Shown here: positions 31,484 to 64,000 of the stretch, in pieces | Layout: each line of letters opens with the position of its first letter | Numbering within the stretch: the stretch's first letter is position 1 | Source of the DNA: Thermoplasmatota archaeon | GTDB taxonomy: Archaea; Thermoplasmatota; Thermoplasmata; UBA10834 | Assembly (NCBI GenBank): GCA_040751795.1 | Contig: JBFMHR010000005.1 | Span: 74,282-138,281 of the forward strand | DNA length: 64,000 nucleotides | Direction of reading: 5' to 3' | Notes under the pieces: generated by a model | What the model was told of the DNA's origin: nothing | The model's input: only the letters and a program-made list of their open reading frames with translations | Database searches by the model: none | Translations under genes and position numbers: made by a program

Positions 31484-31561
31484 TATATTGCGACCTTGGT
31501 CGAGAGAATGCGCTCGTTCGTATTAATGTGACGATGGCACCGTCTGTATGTGGTTAATCTT

Positions 31562-36948: not shown

Positions 36949-38073
36949 TCAGCCTCCGCTCGCACCTGTCAAAGGTGGACTGAGAGCATCGAGCAATGCC
37001 TCTACCACTGTCGACACCTCATCACGGGTCATTTGAGGAAACATTGGCAGAGATAGCACAGACTCAGATACAGCCTCCGTTATTGGCAGTTTGAAATCAT
37101 GGCTACTTTTCTTGTACGACTCCTGCAGATGGACGGGTACGGGATAATGTATGCTTGTCCCTATTCCTCTCGAATTCAGTTCCTTCTGAAGGCGCTGTCT
37201 GTTCTCCGTTCTGATGACGAATTGATGATAGACATGTGTGGCATGTGGTGCTTCGATGGGCAGGACTATGCTCGCATTCCCTAATCCGTTCCGGTACATT
37301 CGGGCTATGTCTCTGCGTTTCGCATTCCAGTCATCAAGATGTCCCAACTTCACTCTCAACACTGCCGCTTGAATCTCGTCGAGTCTGCTATTAATGCCTA
37401 CTGTTTCGTAGTAATATTTCTGGGATTGTCCATAGTTGCTCATCTTGCTCACTTTCTCTGCAATTTCCTCGTTGCTTGTCACCACGATTCCTGCATCTCC
37501 GTAAGCGCCCATGTTTTTCGTCGGGTAAAAGCTGAAACATGCAGCGTCTGCTAGTGACCCGACCCTCCTGCCTTGGTACGTGGCGCCATGTGCCTGGCAC
37601 GCGTCTTCGATGACAAAGATGTCCTTGTCTTCAGCAATCTCCATGATTTCATCCATTCTTGATGGATGTCCGTAGATGTGGACCGGGAGAATCGCCTTCG
37701 TCCTGTCCCCGATTTTTTCTCGTATTTTTGAGGCATCGATGCAGTATGTATGGGGGTCAATATCAACTAGAATTGGTCTTGCTCCATTCCTCGTTATGGC
37801 ATCGACAGTTGAAATGAACGTGTGAGCAGTTGTGATCACTTCATCACCCGGGCCAATTCCAAGCGCCCTAATTGTCGTCAGAAGGGCATCTGAGCCTGAA
37901 TTGACTCCAATGCCAAACCTCGTTCCCACATATGCGGAAAACTCCGATTCAAAGGCTCTACATTCCGCGCCATTGACAAACTGGCCAACGGTGAGCACCC
38001 TCTCAATTGAGTCGAGAACAGCCTCTCCAATCTCTTCAAGTTCTCTCGAAAGGTCGATCGATTTCACAGACAT
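36949..38073 (-). CDS. DegT/DnrJ/EryC1/StrS-family PLP-dependent sugar aminotransferase (FdtB/QdtB/WbpE-like)
   Basis: 374 aa with the characteristic family layout. Candidate PLP-Lys at SFYPTKNMGAYGDAG. Confidence 0.85.
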   Translation of the reverse strand: MSVKSIDLSRELEEIGEAVLDSIERVLTVGQFVNGAECRAFESEFSAYVGTRFGIGVNSGSDALLTTIRALGIGPGDEVITTAHTFISTVDAITRNGARPILVDIDPHTYCIDASKIREKIGDRTKAILPVHIYGHPSRMDEIMEIAEDKDIFVIEDACQAHGATYQGRRVGSLADAACFSFYPTKNMGAYGDAGIVVTSNEEIAEKVSKMSNYGQSQKYYYETVGINSRLDEIQAAVLRVKLGHLDDWNAKRRDIARMYRNGLGNASIVLPIEAPHATHVYHQFVIRTENRQRLQKELNSRGIGTSIHYPVPVHLQESYKKSSHDFKLPITEAVSESVLSLPMFPQMTRDEVSTVVEALLDALSPPLTGASGG

Positions 38074-38147
38074 GGTGGTTTCGCCGCATCATTCAAGTAG
38101 TCATATTCATGAAGAAAGGACATGCATGGGTCTGCAAACACACACGT

Positions 38148-39095
38148 TTACTCCCAATTGACCTCATAAGTATCATACACCGTCGCTCTCGCGCCAAAGG
38201 TGCTCTTGTAGTCTGATAGACTGGAATTTAGATATTGGCCTGCATTTTCTGTAGAAATCCCGAAATCAAAGTACCTCTTGTCGATATAGTATTCGTTTAT
38301 CAAATAGTCTAGCACGCAGTCCACAACGTGCGATTTCCTTCCCGCTTCGGTTGAGGCGATGTACTGAGTGTGCGCGACGTTCCTGCTTTCATACATGATC
38401 ACACCTCCTTCCATGCGCCCGTCAATCACACCGGCGAACAGTCTTATGTTCTCCGGGAATCTCTGAGCTAGAAGAATCATCTCTTCCTTTGTGTGCGTAG
38501 GTCTGACGCCGTGTCTAGATTCCAAACACTTCTTCTCGATTTCCATATAGTTTCCGAAATCGGAGCTTTCCTCGACCTCTGTGCCACGAGACTGAGCCTT
38601 CCTAACACACCACCGACGTTCCTTGGCGAAAGGTGTCCTTTCTGGCATGAAAATAGTGGAGGAGACATCTCGCCTAACTAGCTTCGCATCCGTGAGAAAG
38701 AGGGCGTACAAATCCTCTTCTGCTGGAATGGAATGATAGATGTGTGGTATAGCTTTGTACACGAGCTTCTTGATGCCCATCTCCTTCAGGTGTTTCCCTA
38801 AATCATGAAAGAGATCTACCATGTCCGTGGCCCTCAGTCTGCTATCCGTTATAATTCCCCCGAACGTTAATCCTGCATGACTTGTCATCACGTCTCCTTC
38901 AATAGTGGCTGGCATGACTGCCGTTAAGTCCATGACATCGAAGAAGAATAGCAGAGAACTGTCCCTGAATCTATCCGAATGGTAGTCCATGTACTTCCTA
39001 TCGAAGAGGAATAGTCCATTTCTCGAAGCCTTAACGAATTGATTCCAGCTATCTTCAAGTTCGGGACTATATGCGGTGATTCTGAACATATCCAA
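38148..39095 (-). CDS. FemAB/BioF2-like GNAT-fold acyl(aminoacyl)transferase candidate
   Basis: 315 aa. Two-lobed layout and local similarity pattern recall the Acetyltransf_6/FemAB clan. Weak call from sequence alone. Confidence 0.35.
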   Translation of the reverse strand: MDMFRITAYSPELEDSWNQFVKASRNGLFLFDRKYMDYHSDRFRDSSLLFFFDVMDLTAVMPATIEGDVMTSHAGLTFGGIITDSRLRATDMVDLFHDLGKHLKEMGIKKLVYKAIPHIYHSIPAEEDLYALFLTDAKLVRRDVSSTIFMPERTPFAKERRWCVRKAQSRGTEVEESSDFGNYMEIEKKCLESRHGVRPTHTKEEMILLAQRFPENIRLFAGVIDGRMEGGVIMYESRNVAHTQYIASTEAGRKSHVVDCVLDYLINEYYIDKRYFDFGISTENAGQYLNSSLSDYKSTFGARATVYDTYEVNWE

Positions 39096-39106
39096 CCCTT
39101 AGTGCC

Positions 39107-40018
39107 TCAGATTTCCAACTCTGCGTAACCGAATCCGGTTCTGCCCATATCGTTCCCGTTGTAGAACATAATCGTCCTTTCCCGGACTCGTATTGTGGCA
39201 GGGTAGCACAAATGTTTCGAATCCCACCCCTCCTTTGACAGTGAGATTCCTGCTTCAGAATCCTTCCTTATCCATGAGATTCCATCTTTGGATTCAGCAT
39301 ATCCTGGGATGTAGTCCCCGGTGAGAGTCCCCTTCGTATAGAACATGCAATAGGTATCTCCATCTTTGACTACTCTTGGTCTTCCGATTCGGTACTCGTT
39401 TTCAGTATTATCGATGCAAACCGTCCCTCGGTCTGGGAAATGGATTCCGTCCCTCGACTCGTAGAGCCTGATGTTGTACCTCGGATACGGTTTACCCCCG
39501 ATAGTCTCCCAGCCACTTCCGACGCCGCACCAGGCTCTCCAGATGCCGTTCTCTCTGAGAACGGAGTGTATCGCCCTTATGTACAATCCGTCGTCCGATC
39601 GGTCAAGGATGGGAGTGTTGCTGCATCGCTGGAATCTCTCCCCGCCATCCACACTGACTGCTAGGCCACTGAATGCCAAGAACTTCACTTTCTCCACCAA
39701 TTGGAAGCCAACATAATACATCAGCAACTTCCTGCCGAGTTGCGCAATATCGCCAAGAATCACTCCATTGTCATCGAAACAACCAGGCAGGCCGACGTCG
39801 AGGACTGGGCTATCTGACACCGCTACAATCCTTGATGGTTTGTCGGCGTCAACATCCACATAGCCGATTCTACTTGCTCCCGTATTGTCGCGCATTCCTG
39901 CATAGACGCGAATCTTGTCATCTTCCAGTTGAATCGGAGTCGGCGTTAAAGCGGAGTGTTGTGACCAGTTGGATCGCCCATTTGGGCAATAGACTAACCC
40001 CATCTTTTTCCACTTCAA
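39107..40018 (-). CDS. Five-bladed beta-propeller glycosidase/phosphorylase-like protein (GH43/GH130-superfamily-like)
   Basis: Repeated S/T-x-DG-x-x-(W/F) blade motifs (SVDGGERF, SRDGIHF, SKDGISW) and a C-terminal FYNGND. Family assignment tentative. Confidence 0.35.
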   Translation of the reverse strand: MKWKKMGLVYCPNGRSNWSQHSALTPTPIQLEDDKIRVYAGMRDNTGASRIGYVDVDADKPSRIVAVSDSPVLDVGLPGCFDDNGVILGDIAQLGRKLLMYYVGFQLVEKVKFLAFSGLAVSVDGGERFQRCSNTPILDRSDDGLYIRAIHSVLRENGIWRAWCGVGSGWETIGGKPYPRYNIRLYESRDGIHFPDRGTVCIDNTENEYRIGRPRVVKDGDTYCMFYTKGTLTGDYIPGYAESKDGISWIRKDSEAGISLSKEGWDSKHLCYPATIRVRERTIMFYNGNDMGRTGFGYAELEI

Positions 40019-40021
40019 GAG

Positions 40022-40705
40022 TTATTCCTCACTTACTCCAAAGCTCTCGTAACTGCTCTTGTCGAGAGGGCGCGCAGGATTTCCAACGCACACCTTTCCA
40101 GGCTCGGTATCTCTGATTACTACAGCACCCGAGCCAACAATACAGTCTTTCGCGATTTTGATGCGATCATTATACGTGCTATTCACACCGAGGAAGCAGT
40201 TTTCGCCGATGTCACAGTAACCTGATATGACGCAGTGTGAGGACACGTAACAGTTATCGCGGATGTAAGTTCGATGGCCCACGTGGTTGCCACTCCAGAG
40301 TACCACATTGTTGCCAATCTTGACCTTGTGTTGAAGGACGTTGTTTTCGAATATGAATGAATTCTCGCCAATCTCTACATTGTGCCAAACGAAAGCCTTT
40401 GAACTGACGTAGGATACGAGTCGAAACCCCTTTTTCTTCACTTCGTTATACAGCCTCGTCCTCACTCGGTTGAGCTGGGTATAGGTCACCGCGACATAGA
40501 CGCTGTATTTGGATGGGCTAAAGATCTTATCCAGTTCCTCGAATGGTACCACCGGCAGGCCGAGCAGATCCTTCTCTTTCAGGAAATCTCTCTCGACTGA
40601 GAACGCCACAACTTCGTATTGGGAGTCATGCGTGAAGTACTCGTATGCAATTTGAGCGAACTCACCCGCTCCGACGATGATGATCTGGCCTTTCTTGTCC
40701 CTCAT
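40022..40705 (-). CDS. NeuD/PglD/WbpD-like sugar N-acetyltransferase (hexapeptide LbH with N-terminal Rossmann-like domain)
   Basis: IIIVGAGEFAQ N-terminal motif followed by isoleucine-rich hexapeptide repeats (IGENSFI..., IGNNVVL..., IGENCFLG...). Confidence 0.7.
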   Translation of the reverse strand: MRDKKGQIIIVGAGEFAQIAYEYFTHDSQYEVVAFSVERDFLKEKDLLGLPVVPFEELDKIFSPSKYSVYVAVTYTQLNRVRTRLYNEVKKKGFRLVSYVSSKAFVWHNVEIGENSFIFENNVLQHKVKIGNNVVLWSGNHVGHRTYIRDNCYVSSHCVISGYCDIGENCFLGVNSTYNDRIKIAKDCIVGSGAVVIRDTEPGKVCVGNPARPLDKSSYESFGVSEE

Positions 40706-41160
40706 ATCCGCTTATCCTCCCTCGGGGTTCCGCTCTTGCCCCCGCTCGCTTTCCTTCGACCTACCATCTTGAGGAATACTTGTTTGTCCCTAATGTAGTC
40801 CTCGACCTTGTAGAAATCTGATGCAAGAACCAAGCAGACGGCTCCTGATGAGAAGTTGTCAAGTTTCCTCCATGTCATTGGTGGAATGTACAAACCGTAG
40901 TGAGCTCTGTTGAGGTGAAACCGCTTGCGGTTCTTCCCATCTTCAAGTACGACATCGAAGCTGCCACTCATGGCAATCATCAGCTGCTCGAGTCTCCTAT
41001 GCGCATGTTCTCCTCTTTCCTCTCCTCCTGGAACATCATAGAGATAGTATATTCGTTTGATGTCGAATGGGATATGACGCGTTGATTCTACAAATGTGAG
41101 ATTGCCCTTTTCGTTTGCGATTTTTGGGAGGCTCACAATCCTGCAATCGGCTAGCGACAT
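40702..41160 (-). CDS. WxcM/FdtA-like cupin sugar 3,4-ketoisomerase
   Basis: MSLADCRIVSLPKIANEKGNLTFVE...IPFDIKRIYYLYDVP matches the FdtA/QdtA N-terminal signature. 4-nt overlap with the downstream acetyltransferase. Confidence 0.65.
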   Translation of the reverse strand: MSLADCRIVSLPKIANEKGNLTFVESTRHIPFDIKRIYYLYDVPGGEERGEHAHRRLEQLMIAMSGSFDVVLEDGKNRKRFHLNRAHYGLYIPPMTWRKLDNFSSGAVCLVLASDFYKVEDYIRDKQVFLKMVGRRKASGGKSGTPREDKRI

Positions 41161-41238
41161 AATCTCACCTTCTGCGCGCCAAATGCGGCTCAAACGACAT
41201 TTGCATATCACCATACACTACGTTTGCTGTTCCGCTAA

Positions 41239-42723
41239 CTATTGTCGAGGTATTCTGGGCGATATGGATCGTATGAAGCACCACAGCCTTGCTCTTTCCG
41301 TCTCATCTAGAATGGCTATCACGAATATAAAGGATGCAGCGACCGATATCACACACTTCGGCCAGAATACAATCTCATCATTCCAGCAGAATACCGAGGC
41401 AATTGCGATGATACTCAGTCCTCCGAGCCAAGAACTCTTCAGGCGAGAATCAGAACGGAAGCCATGTCTTCTAATCAGATAAATGAATGCGAACGCGACG
41501 TACACGGAATTGACTACAACGTACGAAATGCCCACGCCCTCAAGGGAACTCAAGACGTCCATTGCTCCCAAGGAAATGGTCAAGAACCCCATCGACGAAC
41601 AGCACTCGAGGGCGAGGAAAGTTCGCACGTCTGCATACGCAAACATAGGCATTGCAAGAACCCATCCCGTCACCCTCATGTAGTCTCCCACGAGCATCCA
41701 CCTAGTCATGCTCGTCGCCTCCAGGAACTCCCCTGAAAACAGGAGTGAGATCACGAATTGCTTTGCGGTAACGATGAATACGGCGATGGGCACAATAATC
41801 ATGATAGAGATTCTGAGGTAATCTCTGATTAGCGAGAGTTTCTCGCCTTGAGCATTAGTCTTGCTGAGAGTCGGAAGGTAGTAAGTGCCGCACGATACAA
41901 GAATAGCACCAACATATGTCATACTTAGAGACCAAGCAGCATTGAAAACACCTGCCTTGTCCATCCCTCCATTTTGGATGATTGACAGCCGGACTATGAG
42001 CAGGACGAAGGATGAGAGGAGTGCCGTTGCCAGCGTTGTTCCAGCGAGCGAGACGAAGTGCCGGACCGACTCTTTGTCGAAAGACTCGCGGAGCCTGAGC
42101 ACTAGCGGCTTGATCCATCCATTTCGCAAGGCCACGTAAAGATTCAAGACCAGACTCATCGAGGAAGTGGCAGTCATCAGCCAGACAAGCGCAAGAAGGT
42201 AGCCACTATCTGCAGCTAAGCACACCGGGTAGGCAATCGCTGCGTTAGTGCCTGCGACTACAATTTGGATTACGGCCATACGACCTATAGCACGGTATCC
42301 ATTGAGGATACCTGCAAAGTACGTGGCAAATGCGTTCAGGGCCACCGGCAGTGAAAGGAAACGAACCAACCACACATTCACTGAATCGCCAGATCCCAGC
42401 ACTGCAGGTGCAATCACTGGCGCCGTAATGACAAGCGCGAGAGCAGTCACGAACCCGCCAATGAGGAATATCAGAAAGATGGCACGGACATATCTCTCTC
42501 TCGCTGCCTTTTCCCTGCGGGCGATTCCCTGCACTAGCGCTGGTCCGCCCGCCAGAGTTGCCAGCAGTCCTGATGTTTGGCTCATTTGAATTAGCATTGA
42601 GTATAGGCCCACGCCTGCTGGGCCAAGAATCACCGCCATGATCTTTGATGAGGCCACGCCAAGAAGCGAGGAGACTGCGAATCCCCCGCTCGTTTTGGAC
42701 ATTGCCTTGAGGATGTCACGCAT
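41239..42723 (-). CDS. Wzx-like polysaccharide/oligosaccharide flippase (MOP superfamily)
   Basis: About 495 aa with 12-14 TM helices. N-terminal MRDILKAMSKTSGGFAVSSLLGVASSKIMAVILGPAGVGLY is typical of polysaccharide biosynthesis export proteins. Confidence 0.75.
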   Translation of the reverse strand: MRDILKAMSKTSGGFAVSSLLGVASSKIMAVILGPAGVGLYSMLIQMSQTSGLLATLAGGPALVQGIARREKAARERYVRAIFLIFLIGGFVTALALVITAPVIAPAVLGSGDSVNVWLVRFLSLPVALNAFATYFAGILNGYRAIGRMAVIQIVVAGTNAAIAYPVCLAADSGYLLALVWLMTATSSMSLVLNLYVALRNGWIKPLVLRLRESFDKESVRHFVSLAGTTLATALLSSFVLLIVRLSIIQNGGMDKAGVFNAAWSLSMTYVGAILVSCGTYYLPTLSKTNAQGEKLSLIRDYLRISIMIIVPIAVFIVTAKQFVISLLFSGEFLEATSMTRWMLVGDYMRVTGWVLAMPMFAYADVRTFLALECCSSMGFLTISLGAMDVLSSLEGVGISYVVVNSVYVAFAFIYLIRRHGFRSDSRLKSSWLGGLSIIAIASVFCWNDEIVFWPKCVISVAASFIFVIAILDETERARLWCFIRSISPRIPRQ

Positions 42724-43091
42724 ATTCCAGGTCAGCTCCGAACGGACCTTCGAATGGCACTGGTCAGTCACGTCTCAGCGCTCATGCGCCACCTGGTAGA
42801 GAAAGCCCTCTAGGTTCATCTTGGTTTCGCACTCATTTGGCACATCAACCGCATTGAGGGGAATCGGTTTCATAGGATTCAATTGGCTATGCATCATCTC
42901 TCGTTCAGCGGTAGAGGGATGGCCACACCTTTCGAGTGGTCACATGGCATGCTTCGCGCGTTGAGCATGGGATTCCTCTTTTCAGTCAATTGCGAAGGTA
43001 TTTGCGTTTTCAAACGCAATTATGACGTCGGCCCTGGTACAGCACTCTATCCGACACTATGATGGGTAGCTGAACCATTTGCTATCAATTC

Positions 43092-45900: not shown

Positions 45901-46149
45901 TCATTGGAGCCGCCTGCCAAGAGACTCTGGGATTCAGAACACGGCTATCTTGATGATCTCCTCAGCGGAGACTCCCTGCCGGCGGTTCCGGAGGCAATAG
46001 TCATTTGCTACACAAGCTCATGCGCCTTCGGAGCCATCCAGGGGTCTGCCATCCCATCCTTGACTCTTGTTCACCAAACACTGGCACGGGAGAGATGGCT
46101 CCTCGTTGCTCCTGAGAGGACAATATTGTCAGCAGAAGCCATTTGCGTC

Positions 46150-54534: not shown

Positions 54535-55503
54535 ATGACGGAGAAGGTATCGATGGTCAACGTCCTAGCATTCATCGGGTCATTTGCGGTTGCCTTCTTG
54601 GTGACATTCATCATCATTCCTTGGTTGATACCCCAGTTGAAAGCTAGGGGAATTGTCGGGAAGGATCTGAACAAGCCTAGCCAACCAGAGATTGCTGAGA
54701 TGGGCGGAATTGCGGTCGTGATTGGCTTCTTTGCAGGAGTGAGCATACTCCTTGCCATGGATGATGTGACCAACAAGGAGGTCTTCAATGTCTCCCTCTC
54801 AGTCCTCATGGGGTCTGCATTCATCGGCATGATAGACGATCTATTTGAGTTGAGACAGAGGCAGAAAGCCCTTTTCCCTTTTCTGCTGGCTTTGCCATTT
54901 GGTGCATCTCTCAATCCCGTGGTAAGCCTCCCTTTCATTGGAGAGGTGCACTTCGGAATCGCTATGATTATCGCTGCACCATTTGCCATCACATGTGCAG
55001 CGAACGCAGGCAACATGCTCGAAGGGTTCAACGGTCTAGGCACAGGACTTGGAATCATCATGTCTTCCACGCTGATTCTGCTAGCCTTTGAACATGATAG
55101 ACTTGACGGGCTCTATCTACTCATCCCCTTGCTGGGAACCCTGCTCGCCTTTCTATGGTTCAATAAGTATCCGTCGCGAATATTCCCAGGCGACACCCTC
55201 ATGCTGTTCATCGGCACGACTCTAGCCGTCTCTGGAATGCTCTCTGGCTTACATTTCCAGACCGGTTTCATCTTCATGCCCATGATAATCGAGTTCTTTC
55301 TGAAATGGCGTGGGCGTTTCAAGGCTGAGAACTATGCATCTGGACTGAAGGGTGGTTATCTGGAATATCACGGCAGGATTGAATCCATCACACACTTATT
55401 CATGAAGCATGCTAGGGTTACCGAAAGATCTTTGACAATCGCCATCTGGGCTATCGAGGCGGTCTTCTGCGCCTTGGTGGTTGTCGGGGATTCGGTCATC
55501 TGA
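54535..55503 (+). CDS. Polyprenyl(dolichyl)-phosphate GlcNAc/HexNAc-1-phosphate transferase (MraY/WecA/AglH family, initiating phosphoglycosyltransferase)
   Basis: 10-11 TM helices. DDxxD (GMIDDLFEL), NAGNMLEGFNGLGTGLG (N..N..DG.DGL-type motif) and PGDTLMLFIG. Confidence 0.75.
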   Translation: MTEKVSMVNVLAFIGSFAVAFLVTFIIIPWLIPQLKARGIVGKDLNKPSQPEIAEMGGIAVVIGFFAGVSILLAMDDVTNKEVFNVSLSVLMGSAFIGMIDDLFELRQRQKALFPFLLALPFGASLNPVVSLPFIGEVHFGIAMIIAAPFAITCAANAGNMLEGFNGLGTGLGIIMSSTLILLAFEHDRLDGLYLLIPLLGTLLAFLWFNKYPSRIFPGDTLMLFIGTTLAVSGMLSGLHFQTGFIFMPMIIEFFLKWRGRFKAENYASGLKGGYLEYHGRIESITHLFMKHARVTERSLTIAIWAIEAVFCALVVVGDSVI

Positions 55504-55520: not shown

Positions 55521-57311
55521 TCAAGATTGAAAGGCAATAATCCTATTGTCGGAGGGTCCTCCGATATACACAACATTCGAATCATCTAGAACGGTATCCA
55601 CCTCATTGCTGTCGAGAAATATCCGTCCTTGAGGGTAGTTGTTCACACCTAGAGCGCTCCATTCATCAAGCAGCAAGTTGATGCTTTCGGGGCTCAGCTG
55701 TTCAGATTCAGCGAGCCGACGCGGCAGACTGGGATCCTGCGCGTAATCATACAGAGCGCGCGCAATATAGGAGATACGCTCGTCAGACCGAATATTCATA
55801 TCAAGGCCGCAAGTATCATGTGCCCATGTGATGGCATCGAATTCGTACAATTCTGTATCATGCCTGACTCCCGTGAGCGTATCAGTTGCGTAACTGAATG
55901 GAAATGACACTATCAGCACCGCAGAGAGGATGATGACAAGTGCCTTTCTCATTCGTGGTCTTCGATATACAGCTGCACACGCAGCGCCAACACCTAATGC
56001 CAACGGTATCTCAGAGAAGTCATATGTGCGGTAGATGAGCGCATGCCCCATCTGCGCCGAATCCTCTAGAATTGCCAGAAGAAGGAACATGAAGATGGGC
56101 AGCAGGAATCCAAGCGGGACAGACCTGTATCTTGAGTGTGACTCAATTAGGTACTCCATTCCGTACCAGCCAACACCAACGACTATCGCCATACAGAATG
56201 CTAGGATCATCACGTAGTGCGGGGCAGCTTGTTCGTATTCGAACATGGGGTTAATGTAATCAATGATGAAGAGGGAGAACACAAGCGTCGCCGGGATGGG
56301 GGCGAAGGACACGCGGTATCTCGATTCCTTATTCAGGTAAAGGTAAGTTATTGCGACTATGACCGCAAGAGAGCCGCCAATCATTGCGATCTCCTGAACG
56401 CTATCGGCGTAGGCTAGACGGTTCAATGAGTTCATGGAGTAGTAGGCATAGGTGACAAGTGTCGTGGCAATCATTGCCACCAGATCACGCACATGACGGG
56501 TTCTCAGTACCTGCGCCTTGGCAGCAAAGGCAAGGGAGACCAGAGTCAGATACCATAGCGCCAAGTATACGATTGCCGCAATGAGGTGGTGGACAATTGG
56601 GAGGACGAGTAGAATAGTCATGCTGAGCAGGAACATCCTGATATCGCTACGGCTGATGTATAGATAGATTATGAATGCGATGAGGGCTACGCCGAGCGAC
56701 TCCTTCCAGGCTGACCCGGATAGAAACACGAACGAGCCAAACAAGCCGAGTACAAAGGATGATAACATTGCAGCAATGGCGTTCGAAGAGACTTTGAGTG
56801 CAACTGCATAGATTCCCACAACGGTAAGCACTGAAAATGCCGCAACCAGAAACTGGGCCACCCAGAATGGCGAAGTCCCTAACATTAGTGCTGCAAATGC
56901 CAGAATAAGGTTGAATGCAGGTGTTATCACGCTGTGAGAATCTGCGTAGAATGCATCAGAGGGATATGAGAGGCCGCCGCTCGAAATGATGTCCTCGGCA
57001 ATCCGACTCTCAGTCATGCCATCATTATTGAAGGGGAATGGAGAAATTGCGAGTGGCACCAATCGAGTAGATAGGGCCATGAACACCAGCGACAGTATAA
57101 TGGCACGCCGCATTCCTCCAAATCCTCTTATGGACTTCCCGATGCTAAGGATTCTCGCAATGAGTGGTTGTCTCGAGTTGTTCTGATGCACAGTTGGAGA
57201 TTCATGTTCCGCTTCATTAAAGGGCTGTCCTTCCTGCCTGATAGGATTTAAGGAAGTGCGGTTGGCCACCTTTGGGTCTGAGTCCAATCCGGGGGATTTC
57301 ATGATATGCAT
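55521..57311 (-). CDS. Polytopic membrane protein (about 13 TM plus C-terminal soluble domain), paralog of 49338..51098; candidate GT-C-like glycosyltransferase
   Basis: Shares first-loop motifs with its paralog (FNNDGMTESRIAEDI, GLSYPSDAFY). Possible alternative start at 57113 (MRRAIILSLVF). Confidence 0.45.
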   Translation of the reverse strand: MHIMKSPGLDSDPKVANRTSLNPIRQEGQPFNEAEHESPTVHQNNSRQPLIARILSIGKSIRGFGGMRRAIILSLVFMALSTRLVPLAISPFPFNNDGMTESRIAEDIISSGGLSYPSDAFYADSHSVITPAFNLILAFAALMLGTSPFWVAQFLVAAFSVLTVVGIYAVALKVSSNAIAAMLSSFVLGLFGSFVFLSGSAWKESLGVALIAFIIYLYISRSDIRMFLLSMTILLVLPIVHHLIAAIVYLALWYLTLVSLAFAAKAQVLRTRHVRDLVAMIATTLVTYAYYSMNSLNRLAYADSVQEIAMIGGSLAVIVAITYLYLNKESRYRVSFAPIPATLVFSLFIIDYINPMFEYEQAAPHYVMILAFCMAIVVGVGWYGMEYLIESHSRYRSVPLGFLLPIFMFLLLAILEDSAQMGHALIYRTYDFSEIPLALGVGAACAAVYRRPRMRKALVIILSAVLIVSFPFSYATDTLTGVRHDTELYEFDAITWAHDTCGLDMNIRSDERISYIARALYDYAQDPSLPRRLAESEQLSPESINLLLDEWSALGVNNYPQGRIFLDSNEVDTVLDDSNVVYIGGPSDNRIIAFQS

Positions 57312-57860: not shown

Positions 57861-59033
57861 ATGTCAGTGCGGCTAATAAGAGTGGTAATCTTCCACAATC
57901 TGCCAACATCATACAGACTCCAGTGGTTCCAGCACATTCTCCGAGACCCCGACCTCGACGTTAGGATATTCCTTACTGGACGACCCAGGTCGAATCGTCC
58001 GTATTGGGTCGATGCTCCGGAATTCCGAGATGGGCGGGTTACAGCCCTTCGCGGACTGGGCTTCCCGCTCAAAGGCCTAGACAATGACAGGTACAATATC
58101 AATCCCGGACTCTTGAGAGTCCTCGATGGGCGCCCAGATGTAGTCATGCTGTTCGGATACGCTGAGCCGACCAACCTCGCGGTCGCAATGCTTTGTCGAC
58201 TGAGAGGGATTCCTTACATACTGTCTGCCGAAGTGTCAGATGTCTGGGGCCAGTCTCTGACTGGAAGGATAAGCATGCCTCTTGTCAAGCGAGTAGTCAG
58301 GAACGCAGCTGGTCTAGCTCCGGCTAGCACGACGTGTGCTCGGTTCTTCGAGAGTCTTGGCGGAAATCGTGAGTCTATGTCGATTATTCCATGTGTTCCC
58401 GACGTTGAACCTCTCAGACGTGCGAGGGAATCGCTAGGATTAGATGCATCGATTATCAAGGATCGTTTGAATCTGAAGGGGATGTCCATCGTTCTGTTCG
58501 TTGGGCGATTGCACGACTACAAAGGGGTGCGCGAGGCAATCGAGGCGCTCGGAATAGTAAGGCGATCAAGACCTGACGTCGTGATGGTGATTGTGGGGAG
58601 CGGACCTTTGGGGAGTTATGTCGAGGAAATGAGCAGACAGCTGGCGCCTAACCTCATGTTCCTCGGAACTGTCGATGACGCTACTCTTCGGGACTTGTAC
58701 TTGGCATCGGATATACACATCATGCCTTCATGGCATGAGGCCTTTGGCGTCGTCTGTGCTGAAGCGCTCGGGTATGGAGTGCCATCAATAGTCACGCGAA
58801 CCTCAGGATGCAGCGATTTGGTGACCGATGGGGAGAATGGATACATCATCAATCCTGGAGATGCTCAGGAACTCGCCCATGCGATTATCGTGTCCCTCTC
58901 TGACCCGATTGCCCTCGACCGTATGAAGAAACTTGCTTTTTCGAAGTCAGAAGACTTTTCGATGAGCATCATTATGGCCAGGCTCAAGAGACTTATCCAT
59001 GAAGTGGCAGAGCGTTCACGAGTATCAAGATGA
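57861..59033 (+). CDS. Glycosyltransferase family 4
   Basis: C-terminal EAFGVVCAEALGYGVPSIVTRTSG (E-x7-E) signature. Confidence 0.75.
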   Translation: MSVRLIRVVIFHNLPTSYRLQWFQHILRDPDLDVRIFLTGRPRSNRPYWVDAPEFRDGRVTALRGLGFPLKGLDNDRYNINPGLLRVLDGRPDVVMLFGYAEPTNLAVAMLCRLRGIPYILSAEVSDVWGQSLTGRISMPLVKRVVRNAAGLAPASTTCARFFESLGGNRESMSIIPCVPDVEPLRRARESLGLDASIIKDRLNLKGMSIVLFVGRLHDYKGVREAIEALGIVRRSRPDVVMVIVGSGPLGSYVEEMSRQLAPNLMFLGTVDDATLRDLYLASDIHIMPSWHEAFGVVCAEALGYGVPSIVTRTSGCSDLVTDGENGYIINPGDAQELAHAIIVSLSDPIALDRMKKLAFSKSEDFSMSIIMARLKRLIHEVAERSRVSR

Positions 59034-59373: not shown

Positions 59374-60654
59374 ATGTCGGATGCGGGAAATGGAACTGCG
59401 AATGTCATCAAAGATGCCTATGTCGAAGCCAGTAAGGAGACTCGCACGAGCGACTTGCCCACAGTCTACTTCCTGGGCGGCCACCATCCGTCAAACGAGC
59501 CATTCATACGATCTCCCCCTTCGAATGTGAGACTGTGTTCAAGGGTGACTGCGAAGGAATTCGAGGAATTCGGTAGGCTCAAACAGTATAGTGGCATGTG
59601 GCCGGTAATGAAGAAGACAAATGATGCTCTCTACAGATCCATTGGCATGCCGCGCCTTCTTCCTGTATTCGGCAGATACGACCTCGTGCACACGAATGGC
59701 TCAGTGATACCTTTGTGTCCCGGCCCATGGGTTGCCAGCATAGAGAACCCTTCAGCATTCTATGGATTCGATGAGAGGTGGCATGAGATTCCGCGTATGA
59801 GGAAACGGCTTGCATCATTCTTGATATCGGAGAGATGCAGGGCAATAATGCCATATTCAGAGGCATCAAAGAGGTACCTGATGATGGGGCTAGCTGACTG
59901 GAAAGAGACCCTCGAACTCAAGACCGAAGTCATTCCCCTAGCGATTGATAAACGCCTCATAAGGAAGAAACCTGAGGACTTGAAGGCTAGGGATGTATCT
60001 GAGAAGATGCGATTCCTCTTCGTTGGCAATCACTTCTTCGACAAAGGCGGACGGGAAGTCTTGAGAGCTTTCCGCAACATTCGTGATTATCACGACTCTG
60101 AACTCACAATCGTCACTTCCGCGCCACCGCACCACTCCAAGGAGTTCCAGGAGTACATACCTAAGATCAAGGCCGAGAAGGATGTAAGATTCTATCATAC
60201 TGGTATTCCAAGGTCTGAGCTAATGAAGCTCTATGACTCATCGCATGTGTTTGCGTTCCCATCATATATGGATCAAGTCCCGTTCGTATTCCTTGAAGCT
60301 ATGGCGGCAGGGTTGCCTCTGATAGGCTCCAACTCCTACGCGATGCCAGAGATGTCAATCGATGGCTCTAATGGCTTCGTTGTTGAGAGTCCTTGGGTTG
60401 CATTTCCTAAATCAGAGTTGAGAACTGTGCGCCATCTCGTCGCCTATCGCTCTGCAGTACTCGAGGAACGTAATTTCGACGGAGTTGTCGAGAACCTGAT
60501 TGATAAGATGAAGTTCCTGATTGACCACGAAGATACAAGGATGATGTTCGCCAGGGAGTCACTTGAGATGGTGATTAATGGCAGATACTCTTTGGGTTGC
60601 AGGAACAAGGCGTTGTCTGCCGTATACTCTAGGAGTCTGCCGAGAATTCGATGA
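59374..60654 (+). CDS. Glycosyltransferase family 4-like
   Basis: C-terminal PFVFLEAMAAGLPLIGSNSYAMPE signature. The N-terminal half is divergent. Confidence 0.6.
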   Translation: MSDAGNGTANVIKDAYVEASKETRTSDLPTVYFLGGHHPSNEPFIRSPPSNVRLCSRVTAKEFEEFGRLKQYSGMWPVMKKTNDALYRSIGMPRLLPVFGRYDLVHTNGSVIPLCPGPWVASIENPSAFYGFDERWHEIPRMRKRLASFLISERCRAIMPYSEASKRYLMMGLADWKETLELKTEVIPLAIDKRLIRKKPEDLKARDVSEKMRFLFVGNHFFDKGGREVLRAFRNIRDYHDSELTIVTSAPPHHSKEFQEYIPKIKAEKDVRFYHTGIPRSELMKLYDSSHVFAFPSYMDQVPFVFLEAMAAGLPLIGSNSYAMPEMSIDGSNGFVVESPWVAFPKSELRTVRHLVAYRSAVLEERNFDGVVENLIDKMKFLIDHEDTRMMFARESLEMVINGRYSLGCRNKALSAVYSRSLPRIR

Positions 60655-60981: not shown

Positions 60982-61962
60982 ATGATTATCTCTAGGACTC
61001 CTTTGAGGGTCAGCCTCGCTGGCGGAGGCACGGATATGGCCGATTACTACCGCTCAGGTTTCGGGGCGGTCACTGCGTCCGCAATCAAGAAGTACATGTA
61101 TGTGACAGTGAACAAGAGGTTCGAGGACAACATCCGTGTCAGTTACTCCAAGACTGAGATCGTTGCTACCCTTGATGCGCTCGAGCACGGGATTGTCAGA
61201 GAGTGCCTCAGGAAAGTGGGTATAAGGAGCGGAATCGAGGTTACAACAATAGCAGACATCCCCTCGAAGGGCACAGGCCTGGGCTCGTCCTCCGCGCTTG
61301 CAGTGGGACTCCTGAATGCTCTATATGCCTTCAAAGGGTATCGAGCCTCTCCGAAGAAGCTCGCCGAGGAGGCGTGCGAGATCGAGATTGAGCAGCTGCA
61401 TGAGCCAATCGGCAAGCAGGATCAATATATGGCTGCCTATGGAGGGCTTCAGCACTTCAGGTTCAATGCGGATGAGACCGTACTTATAGACCCTGTCGTG
61501 TGTCCTGCGAAGACTAAGCGGGATATTGAGCAGCACCTGATGTTGTTCTTCACTGGCCGAAGCAGGAACGCTAGGGATATTCTGACAGCCCAGAAGAGCA
61601 ACGCAGGCAAGAAGAAGGAGACGCTCGACATCATGCGCGACCAGGCTGTCAGCCTCTTCCAGGACCTTGTCTCACTCCAGGTCGGCCGGATAGGGGAGGT
61701 CCTCAGGGAGGGGTGGAACCTGAAGAAGTCCCTGGCCGAAGGCATCTCGGACAAGGAGATAGATGCACTCATGGAGAAGGCGATGACTGCGGGAGCAGTC
61801 GGTGGCAAGATCACAGGGGCTGGGGGAGGAGGATTCATGGTGCTCTTCGTTCCTCCTGAGCGGCAATGGGGCGTGAGGAACGCACTCGTGGACCTCAAGG
61901 AGGTAGAATTCAAGATTGAACCTCAGGGTTCACGGATAATCTATGTCGGAGATGAGATGTGA
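60982..61962 (+). CDS. GHMP-family sugar kinase, D-glycero-D-manno-heptose-7-phosphate kinase (HddA)-like
   Basis: MIISRTPLRVSLAGGGTD N-terminus, GHMP motif PSKGTGLGSSSALAV, and C-terminal KITGAGGGGF. Confidence 0.75.
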   Translation: MIISRTPLRVSLAGGGTDMADYYRSGFGAVTASAIKKYMYVTVNKRFEDNIRVSYSKTEIVATLDALEHGIVRECLRKVGIRSGIEVTTIADIPSKGTGLGSSSALAVGLLNALYAFKGYRASPKKLAEEACEIEIEQLHEPIGKQDQYMAAYGGLQHFRFNADETVLIDPVVCPAKTKRDIEQHLMLFFTGRSRNARDILTAQKSNAGKKKETLDIMRDQAVSLFQDLVSLQVGRIGEVLREGWNLKKSLAEGISDKEIDALMEKAMTAGAVGGKITGAGGGGFMVLFVPPERQWGVRNALVDLKEVEFKIEPQGSRIIYVGDEM

Positions 61963-62555
61963 TGGGTGACGTGGATCATCGGACTGTCAAGTATCTTGAT
62001 GAGGTCATCCGTTCCCTTGAGGGCATGAAGAGAGACTTCCCCTCGAAGGCGACCGAGATCGTCTCAATACTGACTCGAGCCAGAACCTCCGGAAAGAAGG
62101 TGTACGTGATGGGGAACGGCGGCAGCGCATCGACCGCCTCGCACATGGCGTCCGACCTCAACAAGGGTGCCAACAGGGACGATGCCCCCAGGTTCAGAGC
62201 GATAGCGTTGACCGACAACATCCCATTGATGATGGCCTGGGCGAATGATTCCTCCTATGATGATGTGTTCGTGGAGCAGCTGAGAAATCACCTCGAGGAG
62301 GGCGACGTGGTCATAGGGATCAGCGGTTCTGGCAACTCCCCGAACGTGTTGAAGGCGGTCGAATATGCCAACACGAACGGGGCAGTCACGATAGGCATCA
62401 CCGGCTTTGACGGCGGGAAGCTGGCCAAGATGGCGAGAGTCGCCTACGTCGTCCCTTCGCACTGCATGCAACAGGTGGAGGACGCACACTTGATTATGGA
62501 ACACATGCTCTCCATGATACTGAGGGACTCCCCGGAATGCGCCTGCGGGCGATGA
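61962..62555 (+). CDS. gmhA: Phosphoheptose (sedoheptulose-7-P) isomerase, SIS domain
   Basis: VYVMGNGGSASTASHMASDL and VVIGISGSGNSPNV are GmhA signatures. The start overlaps the upstream stop by 1 nt. Confidence 0.8.
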   Translation: MGDVDHRTVKYLDEVIRSLEGMKRDFPSKATEIVSILTRARTSGKKVYVMGNGGSASTASHMASDLNKGANRDDAPRFRAIALTDNIPLMMAWANDSSYDDVFVEQLRNHLEEGDVVIGISGSGNSPNVLKAVEYANTNGAVTIGITGFDGGKLAKMARVAYVVPSHCMQQVEDAHLIMEHMLSMILRDSPECACGR

Positions 62556-62582
62556 GGACCTCCGAGATCGGAATGAGATACA

Positions 62583-63170
62583 ATGCCCACCCACTTCACG
62601 TCCCCGAAGGGAAGGATTGCAGTCTTCGTCGACAGGGACGGAACGATATGTTTCGACAGACACTATCTTGCGGATCCAGATGGCCTTGAGCTGATACCTA
62701 CGGTGATTGAAGGCATCAAGAAGCTCAATGACGTGGGTCTGCCCGTCATAGTGGTGACGAACCAGTCCGGAATAGCCAGGGGCAAGTTCGACGAGAAGCG
62801 ATTGGATGAGATCCATGCGAGGTTGCGCGGGCTTTTGTCTGCAGGCGGCGCTCACATAGACGACCTCTTCTTCTGTCCTCATATGCCGGATGCAGGGTGC
62901 AGATGCAGGAAACCCGCTGTGGGGATGCTCCTGGATGCAGCCGATAGACATGGAATCCACCTGAAAGGGTCGTTCATGATTGGGGATAGGATGATGGACA
63001 TCGAGATGGCACACAAGGTGGGTGCCAGGGCCGCGTTGGTTCCGGAGCCCGGCGACCAGTACGACGTCGCGTCTGAGATGAGACTGTCGAGGGAGAGACC
63101 AGACATCCAGTTGAATACGTTCGTCGAAGCAGTGGATTGGATTCTGGGCAATATCAGAGATGAACCGTAG
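62583..63170 (+). CDS. gmhB: D,D-heptose-1,7-bisphosphate phosphatase (HAD family, GmhB-like)
   Basis: VFVDRDGTI HAD motif I. VVTNQSGIARG. CPHMPDAGCRCRKP zinc-binding loop typical of GmhB. Confidence 0.75.
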   Translation: MPTHFTSPKGRIAVFVDRDGTICFDRHYLADPDGLELIPTVIEGIKKLNDVGLPVIVVTNQSGIARGKFDEKRLDEIHARLRGLLSAGGAHIDDLFFCPHMPDAGCRCRKPAVGMLLDAADRHGIHLKGSFMIGDRMMDIEMAHKVGARAALVPEPGDQYDVASEMRLSRERPDIQLNTFVEAVDWILGNIRDEP

Positions 63171-64000
63171 TGTTCTCGCCCACGACCAGTCTCTCTCCTT
63201 TGGGGAGCATGCCCGCCGAACTGAGTATCTTCGACCCTCTGCCGATGACGCTTCTGACGATCTTGCGTTCCACGTTGATGACGGCGTCCTCCATGACCAT
63301 GGAGTCGTCGACCTCGGCTGACGATATCTGGCACCTGTCCCCCACTGCGGTGTAGGGGCCGATGTACGCCCCTGGGCCTATCTTGCACCCTTCGCCGATT
63401 ATCGCCGGTCCCCTGACGACGGACCTTCCAGTGACTACCGTCCCCTTGCCAATCCTGACCCTCCCAACCACAGAGGAGCCAGATTCGATCTTTCCATCGT
63501 TCAATGATTCGATTCCATCGAGGATGAGGTGGTTCGCATCGAGAATGTCATCAGGCCTTCCTGTGTCCTTCCACCATCCCTCGACGCGGTGAGGCGTGAC
63601 CTTGTAACCCGCATCTATCAGCATGGAGATCGCGTCGGTTATCTCCATCTCATTCCTCCAGGAGGGCCTCAACCTGGGATACACCTCGAAGAAGGTGGAG
63701 TTGAAGGCGTAGATACCTATCACTGCCAGGTCCGACTTCGGTTCCTTCGGCTTCTCCACGGTCCTGAGCACGGTCTTCCCGTCCTCAGACAGCTCCGCGA
63801 TGCCATACCTCTGGGGCTCCTTCACGGGCATGAGGGATATCACACAGTCAGCCTTCTCTTCGGCCATCTTCTTCGGGATCTCCCGGATGCCCGATTTCAG
63901 CAGGTTGTCTCCGAGGTAGACTATGAACGGGTCGTCACCCATGAACTCCTTTGAGCAGTTCACCGCATGGGCGATACCCATGGGCTTCCCCTGCACGATG
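63154..64000 (-). CDS. Sugar-1-phosphate nucleotidyltransferase with C-terminal left-handed beta-helix, partial (N-terminus beyond window end)
   Basis: The C-terminal part of an NTP-transferase domain (LGDNLL, EKPK) is followed by LbH repeats (IGKGTVVTGRSVV, IGEGCKIGPGAYIGPYT). Convergent with gmhB, 17-nt overlap. Confidence 0.7.
   Translation of the reverse strand, partial: IVQGKPMGIAHAVNCSKEFMGDDPFIVYLGDNLLKSGIREIPKKMAEEKADCVISLMPVKEPQRYGIAELSEDGKTVLRTVEKPKEPKSDLAVIGIYAFNSTFFEVYPRLRPSWRNEMEITDAISMLIDAGYKVTPHRVEGWWKDTGRPDDILDANHLILDGIESLNDGKIESGSSVVGRVRIGKGTVVTGRSVVRGPAIIGEGCKIGPGAYIGPYTAVGDRCQISSAEVDDSMVMEDAVINVERKIVRSVIGRGSKILSSAGMLPKGERLVVGENTTVHL

Follow-up and report, generated by a model that had tools for sequence, protein, structure and literature searches.

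A GmhA-, HddA- and GmhB-like gene trio next to rmlA in a glycan-assembly island of a Thermoplasmatota archaeon

Gene content and layout of the locus

The window analysed here, a stretch of 64,000 nucleotides, belongs to a Candidatus Thermoplasmatota MAG, in agreement with the archaeal-type genome proposed by an earlier sequence-only reading of the same DNA. A haloarchaeal origin, suggested by the high GC, was ruled out as the proteins are not acidic. The four open reading frames reported at 60982-64000 are all present:

60982..61962, + strand: GHMP-family sugar-phosphate kinase, HddA-like, 326 aa (Pfam GHMP_kinases_N and GHMP_kinases_C, NCBIfam and PDB matches)
61962..62555, + strand: GmhA-like SIS_2 isomerase, 197-198 aa (Pfam SIS_2 and SIS, TIGR00441, PDB GmhA)
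62583..63170, + strand: GmhB-like HAD-IIIA heptose-1,7-bisphosphate 7-phosphatase, 195 aa (NF006506, TIGR01656, TIGR01662, PDB GmhB)
63154..64000, - strand: 3' part (281 codons) of a long-form RmlA (RmlA-long) with an LbH C-terminal domain (TIGR01208)

The first three genes, hereafter the trio, form a translationally coupled operon of co-oriented genes (60982-63170): the isomerase ATG shares one base with the kinase TGA (junction TGATG; a GTG at 61959 could serve as an alternative start), and a gap of 27 bp separates the isomerase from the phosphatase. The fourth gene, a nucleotidyltransferase, has its stop codon at 63154-63156 on the minus strand, overlaps the 3' end of the phosphatase gene by 17 bp in convergent orientation, and leaves the window at 64000 with its first 77 codons outside. 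Of the contiguous four-gene set proposed earlier, the adjacency thus stands and the common orientation does not. The kinase-SIS-HAD unit recurs in five relatives (L001, L002, L084, L086 and L088) with varying flanking genes, and its clustering is therefore not a matter of chance.

The kinase and the phosphatase

The kinase, which starts MIISRTPLRVSLAGGGTD and is 100% identical to protein P0001 (326 aa), contains the domains PF00288 and PF08544 in a Pfam search. It bears the three GHMP motifs PLR..AGGGTD, GxGLGSSSA and GAGGGGF, which are invariant in our alignment and align to 3K85, 4N3O and 4USM. Among NCBIfam models it matches HddA (NF049969) best, with 165 bits, well under the equivalog cut-off of 600 bits; fucokinase follows with 89, mevalonate kinase with 82 and galactokinase with 53 bits. 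A more canonical HddA paralogue encoded in L088 scores 289 bits and likewise falls under this cut-off. The best PDB matches are the heptose-7-phosphate kinases 3K85, 4N3O and 4USK (E-values from 5e-41 to 5e-36), and a fucokinase comes next (3e-16). Both sets of scores thus place the protein nearest to the heptose-7-phosphate kinases (HddA/WcbL), as the sequence-only reading had it, and the galacto- or mevalonate-type identity that could have overturned that reading was rejected on its far weaker scores. By analogy with HddA/WcbL, the kinase product would be the alpha anomer at C1 of the heptose.

The phosphatase contains FFCPHMPDAGCRCRKP and carries the HAD-IIIA motifs (DxDGT, TNQ, K, GDxxxD), here as FVDRDGT, VVTNQSG and IGDRMMD, together with a zinc loop CPH...CRCRKP (Cys-x-His...Cys-x-Cys). 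It passes the domain cut-offs of TIGR01656 (136.7 bits; cut-off 84) and TIGR01662 (112.5; 44.6), stays narrowly under those of the GmhB models NF006506 (163.1 bits; 178) and TIGR00213 (118.7; 149.6), and aligns to the PDB GmhB structures 3L8E and 2GMW (E-value 3e-28). These matches bear out the GmhB-like identity read earlier from the CxCRKP loop. A histidinol phosphatase (HisB-N) was rejected: 87.5 bits against 163.1 for the GmhB-type NF006506.

A variant GmhA-like isomerase

The isomerase, which contains VMGNGGSASTASHMASDL, is a single-domain protein with a GNGGS motif and with PF13580 (SIS_2) and PF01380 (SIS) as its only Pfam domains. The GmhA models score best, albeit below their cut-offs (TIGR00441 gmhA, 117 bits against 209; NF010546, 108 against 276), and the PDB GmhA matches reach an E-value of 7e-25 over residues 40-187, the top one being the Q175E mutant 5LTZ. 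The GmhA type assigned earlier is thereby upheld. The other candidate raised against it, a KpsF/GutQ arabinose-5-phosphate isomerase, was checked and rejected since the CBS domain pair is absent and the GmhA models rank on top. DiaA, which binds DnaA, was rejected as well: archaea are not known to have DnaA, and the genomic context is one of sugar biosynthesis.

Canonical GmhA enzymes carry His64, Glu68, Gln175 and His183 (B. pseudomallei numbering) and a Ser-Thr-Ser phosphate loop; the Glu and Gln contact C1-O1 and C2-O2 of the substrate, and the Thr is conserved (PMC7705670). The window isomerase departs from this pattern: its catalytic set is His/Asp/Glu/His with Ser-Gly-Ser, i.e., Asp for Glu, Glu for Gln and Gly for Thr. 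It is not alone in this. In a comparison of 49 sequences, 44 of the 46 full-length isomerases that neighbour this kinase type in bacterial and archaeal loci, among the matches listed, have His-Asp...Glu-His and Ser-x-Ser, with Gly, Ser or Val at the Thr position. Judged from these residues, the variant isomerases are a coherent subfamily, for which our search of the PDB and the literature found no characterised or structurally solved member. The changes are conservative, so that activity still seems plausible; the substrate or product may nevertheless differ from those of the textbook pathway. In L088 a canonical HddA/GmhA pair, with a GmhA paralogue that scores 178 bits with TIGR00441 and 181 with NF010546, is found just 7 kb away from the variant trio, an arrangement suggesting that the two sets are not redundant.

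The fourth gene is RmlA-long

The full-length transferase, P0121 (358 aa), has a hexapeptide/LbH C-terminal domain. Both the 281-aa part in the window (324.1 bits) and the complete protein (441.7 bits) pass the TIGR01208 cut-off of 320.25 bits for RmlA-long, a glucose-1-phosphate thymidylyltransferase. This answers the earlier query whether the N-terminus outside the window is HddC-like (GTP) or RmlA-like. HddC, a short protein of about 220-240 aa lacking LbH (NF049965), is absent from the 11 families listed for P0121 at E <= 1e-20, and the part in the window scores 39 bits against an HMM of the HddC-like transferases that flank the kinase type elsewhere.

The context of the orthologues agrees with this assignment. 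In L084, L088 and L090, orthologues of the transferase (78-91% identity) belong to rmlD-rmlA/rmlC-rmlB blocks, where rmlA overlaps rmlD and faces rmlC-rmlB; the neighbouring rml genes pass TIGR01214 and TIGR01181. From these loci we infer that rmlD, rmlC and rmlB of the source genome lie beyond position 64000. The adjacency of rmlA and the trio is not conserved among the relatives: in L001, L002, L084 and L088 RmlA-long and the trio are no more than 10 kb apart, L086 has no nucleotidyltransferase at this distance from its trio, and in L090, whose transferase is 91% identical, no trio follows rmlA. We assign the long-form nucleotidyltransferase to dTDP-sugar synthesis rather than to heptose.

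Besides RmlA-long, neither an HddC-like nor any other nucleotidyltransferase was found in the 64 kb window, and the NDP-heptose pathway once thought complete here lacks its last enzyme in the window. A relic of HddC upstream of the kinase was rejected, with no match in the 327-bp spacer. The ADP-heptose beta pathway (HldE, or HldA plus HldC) was rejected too: the kinase is of the GHMP and not the PfkB type, the HxGH adenylyltransferase motif is missing, and the 64 kb hold no HldC-like gene, GxFDxxHxGH being absent from all six frames.

The surrounding glycan island

The trio occupies the right end of a low-GC island for glycan assembly, which spans at least 32 kb and whose main features to the left of the trio are:

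57861-59033 and 59374-60654, + strand: two GT4-family glycosyltransferases (Pfam Glycos_transf_1, Glyco_trans_1_4)
54535..55503, + strand: MraY/WecA/AglH-type polyprenyl-phosphate sugar-phosphate transferase (weak matches to NCBIfam mraY, archaeal MraY and wecA, all below cut-off)
41239..42771, - strand: Wzx-like polysaccharide flippase (Pfam Polysacc_synt_3, Polysacc_synt)
36949..41214, - strand: dTDP-3-acylamino-3,6-dideoxyhexose genes (FdtA PF05523, 190 bits; TIGR03570, 194 bits, above cut-off)

Altogether the island holds the flippase, five GT4 and one GT2 glycosyltransferases, the WecA/AglH-like initiator, whose product likely starts a lipid-linked glycan, and a pyruvyl transferase. The pair of GT4 genes, just upstream of the trio and on the same strand, may be users of the activated heptose. 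The genes at 36949..41214 encode a DegT aminotransferase, a GNAT-like protein, a GH130-like protein, a NeuD/VioB acetyltransferase and the FdtA 3,4-ketoisomerase; they need dTDP-glucose, and RmlA therefore has a task within the island itself. The trio stands among glycosyltransferases and flippases in the window as well as in all five close relatives.

The kinase type in other lineages

Our survey covered, among the matches listed, 57 genome loci in which the kinase type is flanked by 5 kb or more of sequence on each side. The matches of the genome-contig profile scan were relatives at 43-54% identity; the clade at 75-90% was reached via contigs encoding homologues. For the phosphatase and the transferase, stand-alone proteins were used to build the HMMs and the domains were scored separately, as fusions bridge both families. 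Among these matches, a SIS gene lies within 5 kb of the kinase in 42 of the 57 loci and a HAD gene in 35; a short HddC/ManC-like transferase is found in 34 (directly adjoining the kinase in 25), and transferase-phosphatase fusions occur in 13. Such linkage, fusions included, ties the kinase type to the NDP-heptose pathway. The window differs from these other lineages in having no co-oriented adjacent or fused HddC-like gene by the kinase. In two loci of another Thermoplasmata clade (L015 and L064) the kinase-isomerase pair is flanked by an XPD helicase and a CBS protein. The stretches examined there contain neither a phosphatase nor glycan genes, a context that hints at other roles for the pair. 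Current annotation of the kinase type is either too specific (the KO-based 'HddA') or too vague ('GHMP kinase').

Proposed pathway and alternatives

The analysis establishes the enzyme families, the order of the genes, the trio's conservation, and what RmlA is and where its orthologues lie; the substrate, the anomer, the product stereochemistry, the activating enzyme and the recipient glycan we infer. In our preferred reading, to which we give a probability of roughly 70%, the trio makes heptose-1-phosphate from sedoheptulose-7-phosphate for a surface glycan, and its neighbour is the RmlA of an rml block. The GmhA-like isomerase would convert sedoheptulose-7-phosphate into aldoheptose-7-phosphate, the HddA-like kinase would add a phosphate at the anomeric carbon, and the GmhB-like phosphatase would remove the 7-phosphate to yield heptose-1-phosphate; the heptose would end up in a surface glycan, probably N-linked. 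RmlA of the rmlBCDA block would supply dTDP-glucose to two routes, rhamnose synthesis and the island's dTDP-aminodideoxyhexose genes. As no dedicated activating gene is present here, heptose-1-phosphate would be activated by an unlinked transferase or by a side activity of RmlA-long. The family and structure-sequence matches of the three enzymes favour a heptose pathway over the alternatives, and those to solved heptose enzymes are decisive for the fold; against the preferred reading count the scores of all three proteins, below the equivalog cut-offs, the exchanged residues of the isomerase, the setting of the kinase-isomerase pair in the other Thermoplasmata clade, and a donor route that is incomplete without a transferase.

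That gap would vanish if the four adjacent genes made up one complete NDP-heptose pathway in which RmlA-long gives, e.g., dTDP-, UDP- or GDP-heptose. The transferase does adjoin the trio with its 17-bp convergent overlap, is the only one found within the window and, in four relatives, is no more than 10 kb away from the trio; moreover, kinase and RmlA-long homologues come from contigs equal in reported length (among them short ones of 3651 and 5786 bp), which suggests that they share contigs. Archaeal long-form sugar-1-phosphate nucleotidyltransferases are, in addition, promiscuous. We nevertheless consider this arrangement unlikely. The transferase passes the TIGR01208 cut-off, the families listed for it do not include HddC, and the HddC-like HMM gives its truncated part 39 bits; it lies on the opposite strand, its orthologues belong to rml blocks, either partner occurs without the other (the trio in L086 with no transferase within 10 kb, rmlA in L090), and the island separately needs dTDP-glucose. 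Another view, about as doubtful, takes the trio for a 'type 2' heptose module in its own right, with a variant isomerase that would give a non-manno aldoheptose-7-phosphate, for example the C2 epimer D-glycero-D-gluco, which a single 4-epimerisation would turn into the D-glycero-D-galacto form known from Thermoplasma glycans. It draws on the 44 of 46 isomerases, among the matches listed, that carry the variant signature at the very residues contacting C1-O1 and C2-O2 (PMC7705670), and on the T. acidophilum heptose being galacto- and not manno-configured (PMC12448462). The canonical pair beside the variant trio in L088 points the same way. Asp for Glu and Glu for Gln are conservative exchanges, however, and the same chemistry may persist. 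Furthermore, heptose stereochemistry is set in Campylobacter by enzymes acting on the NDP-sugar, and other enzymes at that level could fix it here as well. It is similarly improbable, going by the sequences, that all parts of the broadest version hold, namely a second heptose module type spread over many bacterial phyla and several archaeal lineages, with a non-manno product and with RmlA-long making dTDP- or UDP-heptose in Thermoplasmatota, which have no linked HddC; if true, the second module type plus RmlA-long could be the route to the D-glycero-D-galacto-heptose of the Thermoplasma N-glycan.

Less probable still is that the trio serves no glycan precursor at all: it would then handle another sugar phosphate, or be metabolic or regulatory in function, and would lie in the island by coincidence. 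The missed equivalog cut-offs of all three proteins and the kinase-isomerase pair of L015 and L064, by an XPD helicase and a CBS protein and with no phosphatase or glycan genes in the stretches examined, would fit such a role. Against it, heptose enzymes come first by wide margins in all the family searches, the kinase type is frequently linked (or its partners fused) to HddC-like genes, and the trio stands amid glycosyltransferases and flippases in the window and five relatives.

Comparison with known systems

The trio shares with the HddA-route pathway its SIS_2 isomerase, GHMP kinase and zinc-loop HAD-IIIA phosphatase as well as its closest solved structures; it differs in the absence of HddC, in the Asp/Glu/Gly isomerase, in the archaeal host, in the RmlA-long neighbour and in its sub-cut-off scores. 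The nearest known system for the fourth gene is the rmlABCD dTDP-L-rhamnose operon with long-form RmlA: the gene passes TIGR01208 and has orthologues beside rmlD, rmlC and rmlB, and the window itself holds only the 3' part of rmlA. The most useful by-product of the analysis is the signature His-Asp...Glu-His with Ser-x-Ser, which separates a large isomerase subfamily from canonical GmhA.

Enzymes for NDP-beta-D-manno-heptose are described as spanning kingdoms, archaea included (Tang et al. 2024, as summarised in PMC11461863 and PMC11573728); they are of the HldE/HldC type (cytidylyltransferase fold) and follow the beta route, and none occurs in the window. Closer at hand is 'Iplasma', an AMD archaeon of the Thermoplasmata lineage (Yelton et al. 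2013, PMC3750248), with a heptose cluster beside dTDP-L-rhamnose and GDP-fucose genes; there, essentially as here, heptose genes lie near rhamnose and N-glycosylation genes, except that the window has a GHMP-type kinase (alpha route) and neither ADP-heptose transferase nor epimerase. Heptose genes near rhamnose genes in an archaeon are thus not new, and the finding is largely ordinary. Nor is heptose in an archaeal surface glycan the rarity it was first taken for, being already documented in Thermoplasmatota (PMC11407970, PMC12448462, PMC3750248).

The N-glycan of T. acidophilum, from the same phylum, contains D-glycero-D-galacto-heptose (PMC11407970, PMC12448462) and was also modelled on the CdiP pilus of Thermoplasmatales (PMC12448462). 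A heptose-bearing surface N-glycan of this kind is the likeliest destination for the product of the trio. The T. acidophilum heptose is galacto-configured and its biosynthetic genes are not assigned in the literature that we found; our search gave nothing useful on a phosphoheptose isomerase in Thermoplasma or on D-glycero-D-galacto-heptose biosynthesis. The trio, set in a low-GC, strain-variable and rml-anchored glycan island of uncultured Thermoplasmatota, could plausibly be the genetic source of the heptose that chemical analysis has revealed in Thermoplasma-type N-glycans.

Probable heptose enzymes at the window end

The contig, 276 kb long, comes from a MAG that carries the label Candidatus Thermoplasmatota archaeon. 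Four ORFs fill the final 3 kb of the window:

60982-61962, +, GHMP kinase (326 aa)
61962-62555, +, SIS protein (197 aa), whose ATG begins on the last base of the kinase stop (TGATG)
62583-63170, +, HAD-IIIA phosphatase (195 aa), preceded by a 27-bp gap
stop codon 63154-63156, -, long-form nucleotidyltransferase (3' 281 codons)

All four members of the set read from the sequence are thus in place, the first three as a single co-oriented, coupled unit (hereafter the trio); the fourth is convergent, its 3' end overlapping that of the phosphatase gene by 17 bp. Among NCBIfam models the kinase matches HddA best (165 bits; fucokinase 89, mevalonate kinase 82, galactokinase 53), and the solved structures closest to it are those of heptose-7-phosphate kinases (3K85, 4N3O, and WcbL 4USK/4USM), at E 5e-41 to 5e-36, with the next family reaching only E 3e-16. 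The best matches of the SIS protein are GmhA models and GmhA structures; it contains SIS domains only, which rules out a KpsF/GutQ identity. The phosphatase, carrying the HAD-IIIA motifs and a Cys-x-His...Cys-x-Cys loop, scores 163 bits with GmhB, above histidinol phosphatase, and matches the PDB GmhB entries 3L8E and 2GMW at E 3e-28. All three proteins miss the curated equivalog cut-offs (kinase 165 of 600 bits, isomerase 117 of 209, phosphatase 163 of 178). Because family, structure, and domain matches favour the heptose enzymes, the HddA, GmhA, and GmhB assignments of the sequence-only reading are supported at the level of family likeness, and the galacto/mevalonate-type kinase that it had named as an alternative is dismissed as well.

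We put the probability that the trio is a heptose-1-phosphate module at about 0.7. From homology and gene order, the isomerase would convert sedoheptulose-7-phosphate to aldoheptose-7-phosphate, the kinase would phosphorylate this at C1 (to the alpha anomer, if it acts as HddA does), and removal of the C7 phosphate would yield heptose-1-phosphate. Activation to NDP-heptose would fall to an unlinked transferase or to a side activity of an RmlA-long enzyme. A glycosyltransferase of the surrounding island, perhaps one of two GT4 enzymes encoded just upstream, would then transfer the heptose to a lipid-linked glycan, probably started by a WecA/AglH-like enzyme and flipped by a Wzx-like protein.

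The glycan-assembly island

The GC content is 64-70% at 1-30 kb and, after a sharp break, about 50% from about 31.5 kb to the window end. The gene at 30203-31483 has a third-position GC of 0.95; most genes to the right have 0.50-0.63, and the trio and the nucleotidyltransferase gene are intermediate (0.68-0.77). By its predicted gene content the low-GC right half, which continues past the window end, is an island for glycan assembly: it encodes five GT4 and one GT2 glycosyltransferases, a Wzx-like flippase, and a WecA/AglH-like initiating transferase. Further features are:

24428-25363 (-) and 32770-33768 (-), two radical-SAM/SPASM proteins
31550-32623, +, exosortase/archaeosortase family protein (PF09721, 46 bits), exactly at the island's left edge
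36949-41214, -, five-gene run: DegT aminotransferase, GNAT-like protein (Acetyltransf_6), weakly GH130-like protein, NeuD/VioB-family acetyltransferase, FdtA 3,4-ketoisomerase
49338-51098 (+) and 55521-57311 (-), polytopic membrane proteins of ~590 aa
51249-54145, -, polysaccharide pyruvyl transferase (CsaB/WcaK-like) and adjoining FrhB/FdhB-like iron-sulfur protein

The five-gene run looks like a dTDP-3-acylamino-3,6-dideoxyhexose pathway, which would need RmlA and RmlB, and the pairing of pyruvyl transferase and FrhB-like protein suggests a pyruvylated glycan. No Pfam family, not even STT3, matches either ~590-aa membrane protein at E 1e-3; each is a candidate glycan polymerase or unusual oligosaccharyltransferase-like enzyme. 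The first radical-SAM/SPASM gene sits in a local GC dip (0.55) inside the high-GC left part. Between 43400 and 46500 the ORFs are short or broken and the GC is somewhat raised, to 55-60%; they include a very basic 155-aa ORF (45433-45900) that has no Pfam match and a 216-aa ORF (45817-46467) with only a weak, C-terminal hexapeptide-repeat match, and may be gene remnants within the island. In a close relative (L084, 12430-17082; likewise L085) the gene directly downstream of the trio encodes a secreted-looking protein of 1550 aa with PKD, Kre9_KNH, and Flg_new_2 matches, a possible glycoprotein substrate.

The fourth gene and the activating step

The part of the nucleotidyltransferase inside the window scores 324.1 bits and passes the RmlA-long equivalog cut-off of 320.25. 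The full-length protein (P0121, 358 aa, 100% identical, named glucose-1-phosphate thymidylyltransferase at NCBI) reaches 441.7 bits, and HddC is absent among the matches listed for it; the HddC-like identity considered for this gene is not supported. Its orthologue overlaps rmlD and faces rmlC-rmlB in three related loci, L084 (79% identity), L088 (78%), and L090 (91%); in L088, rmlD passes TIGR01214 and rmlB passes TIGR01181. In the window rmlA adjoins the trio, and the rest of the block would lie past position 64000. Block and trio are 4-5 kb apart and in a different orientation in L084 and L088, and ~9 kb apart in L001 and L002; in L086 the 10 kb around the trio hold no nucleotidyltransferase gene. 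In L090, a GT2 gene and phosphonate genes follow rmlA, and no trio was seen. Given this varying arrangement, the rml block looks like a conserved anchor bordering a variable island. The phosphonate set of L090 (5000-9861), the locus with the closest RmlA relative, comprises a PEP mutase with a fused cytidylyltransferase-like domain, a TPP-dependent decarboxylase, an Fe-alcohol dehydrogenase, and a CDP-glycerol-type transferase, which suggests that this strain decorates a glycan with phosphonate.

An HMM built from transferases that flank kinases of the window's type elsewhere picked out no further transferase in the 64 kb, and motif searches found no second NTP-transferase P-loop or HldC-type HxGH motif there. 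Since these searches return no other transferase, the predicted NDP-heptose pathway is three-quarters encoded in the window and not complete; the sequence-only reading had it as complete-looking. The five closest loci likewise have no dedicated short transferase; L002 has only RmlA-long and a glucose-1-phosphate cytidylyltransferase passing TIGR02623.

Loci of other lineages often do have a dedicated short HddC-like transferase. Scanning one genome per species for window-type kinases, we found at least 80 loci at 43-54% identity, those among the matches listed belonging to many bacterial phyla and to Woesearchaeota, Micrarchaeota, and Thermoplasmata. Domain-resolved neighbourhoods covered the 57 listed loci that extend 5 kb or more past the kinase in both directions: a SIS gene lies within 5 kb of the kinase in 42, a HAD gene nearby in 35, and a short transferase (~230 aa) in 34, of which 25 abut the kinase, in many cases overlapping it by 4 bp. 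The best models for these short transferases are mannose-1-phosphate guanylyltransferase (151 bits) and HddC (140 bits). Transferase-phosphatase fusions of ~440 aa occur in 13 of the 57; fusions of this order adjoin the kinase at L009, L019, L022, L023, L029, L033, L037, L039, L044, L056, L059, L060, L061, L072, L075, L076, and L079, and the archaeal L066 has the reverse, phosphatase-transferase, order. In the actinobacterial L032 and L050 a GmhB-like phosphatase adjoining the kinase is fused to the isomerase instead. The transferase fusions and adjacencies make a good case that kinases of this type normally serve a four-step NDP-heptose pathway; they also show the form that a dedicated transferase takes, and the window has none of that form.

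A variant isomerase subfamily

Characterised GmhA enzymes, numbered as in B. pseudomallei, have His64, Glu68, Gln175, and His183, and their loop reads Ser-Thr-Ser, whereas the window isomerase has His, Asp, Glu, and His at these positions and a Ser-Gly-Ser loop. Among PDB entries it matches the GmhA Q175E mutant 5LTZ best. We aligned 46 complete SIS proteins, the window's included, encoded beside window-type kinases among the matches listed: the two catalytic positions are occupied by Asp and Glu in all 46, the complete His-Asp...Glu-His set occurs in 44, and in 45 the loop Thr is replaced by Gly, Ser, Val, Ala, or Cys. By contrast, Glu, Gln, and Thr are kept in B. pseudomallei GmhA and in a second, more canonical GmhA of L088. 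The latter belongs to a canonical HddA/GmhA pair (L088 1372-2980, -; likewise L089) scoring 289 and 178 bits, which lies in the same island, 7 kb from the variant trio, and is without its own phosphatase or transferase.

In a rough NJ distance tree, which carries no support values, the canonical L088 kinase falls outside the whole set of window-type kinases, on a long branch, and bacterial sequences fall between the window's Thermoplasmatota clade and a second Thermoplasmata clade. This two-clade pattern is suggestive only; for the horizontal transfer raised in the sequence-only reading, the kinase tree and the atypical GC are compatible with exchange between domains and are not proof of it. 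Members of the second clade (L015 7707-12415, L064 7997-12419) have a window-type kinase-isomerase pair between the genes of an XPD/Rad3-type helicase (upstream) and a ~280-aa CBS-pair protein (downstream), with no phosphatase or HddC-like transferase by our models and no glycan gene among the ORFs examined.

Two further readings concern the proposed route. RmlA-long might itself activate heptose-1-phosphate, as its adjacency to the trio could suggest; the gene's distance from the trio varies among relatives, RmlA has a clear function in the island through the FdtA-type genes, and we consider such an activity improbable. The variant isomerase might give a non-manno product, which seems unlikely. 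HygP, reportedly a member of the GmhA family, offers a comparison. It shows that an enzyme isomerising sedoheptulose-7-phosphate can lead to another stereoisomer, a D-glycero-D-altro-heptose (PMC10948575). Of the GmhA residues replaced in the variant, Glu and Gln are described as those that contact the substrate at C1-O1 and C2-O2, and Thr as fully conserved (PMC7705670).

Comparison with known heptose systems

The only potentially new elements are the variant isomerase subfamily, for which no characterised member was found, and the missing transferase. Heptose in an archaeal surface glycan, thought unusual in the sequence-only reading, is already established in the same phylum, Thermoplasmatota: the N-glycan of T. 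acidophilum has a rare isomer of heptose (PMC11407970), given as D-glycero-D-galacto-heptose, the heptose-bearing glycan of that species has been modelled on a Thermoplasmatales pilus (PMC12448462), and in 'Iplasma' heptose-pathway genes were reported to cluster next to those for dTDP-L-rhamnose and GDP-fucose (Yelton et al. 2013, PMC3750248). Beta-heptose enzymes that function have been demonstrated in archaea (Tang et al. 2024, PMC11461863). As archaeal heptose glycans, clusters, and enzymes have all been reported, the trio adds to a known kind of system.
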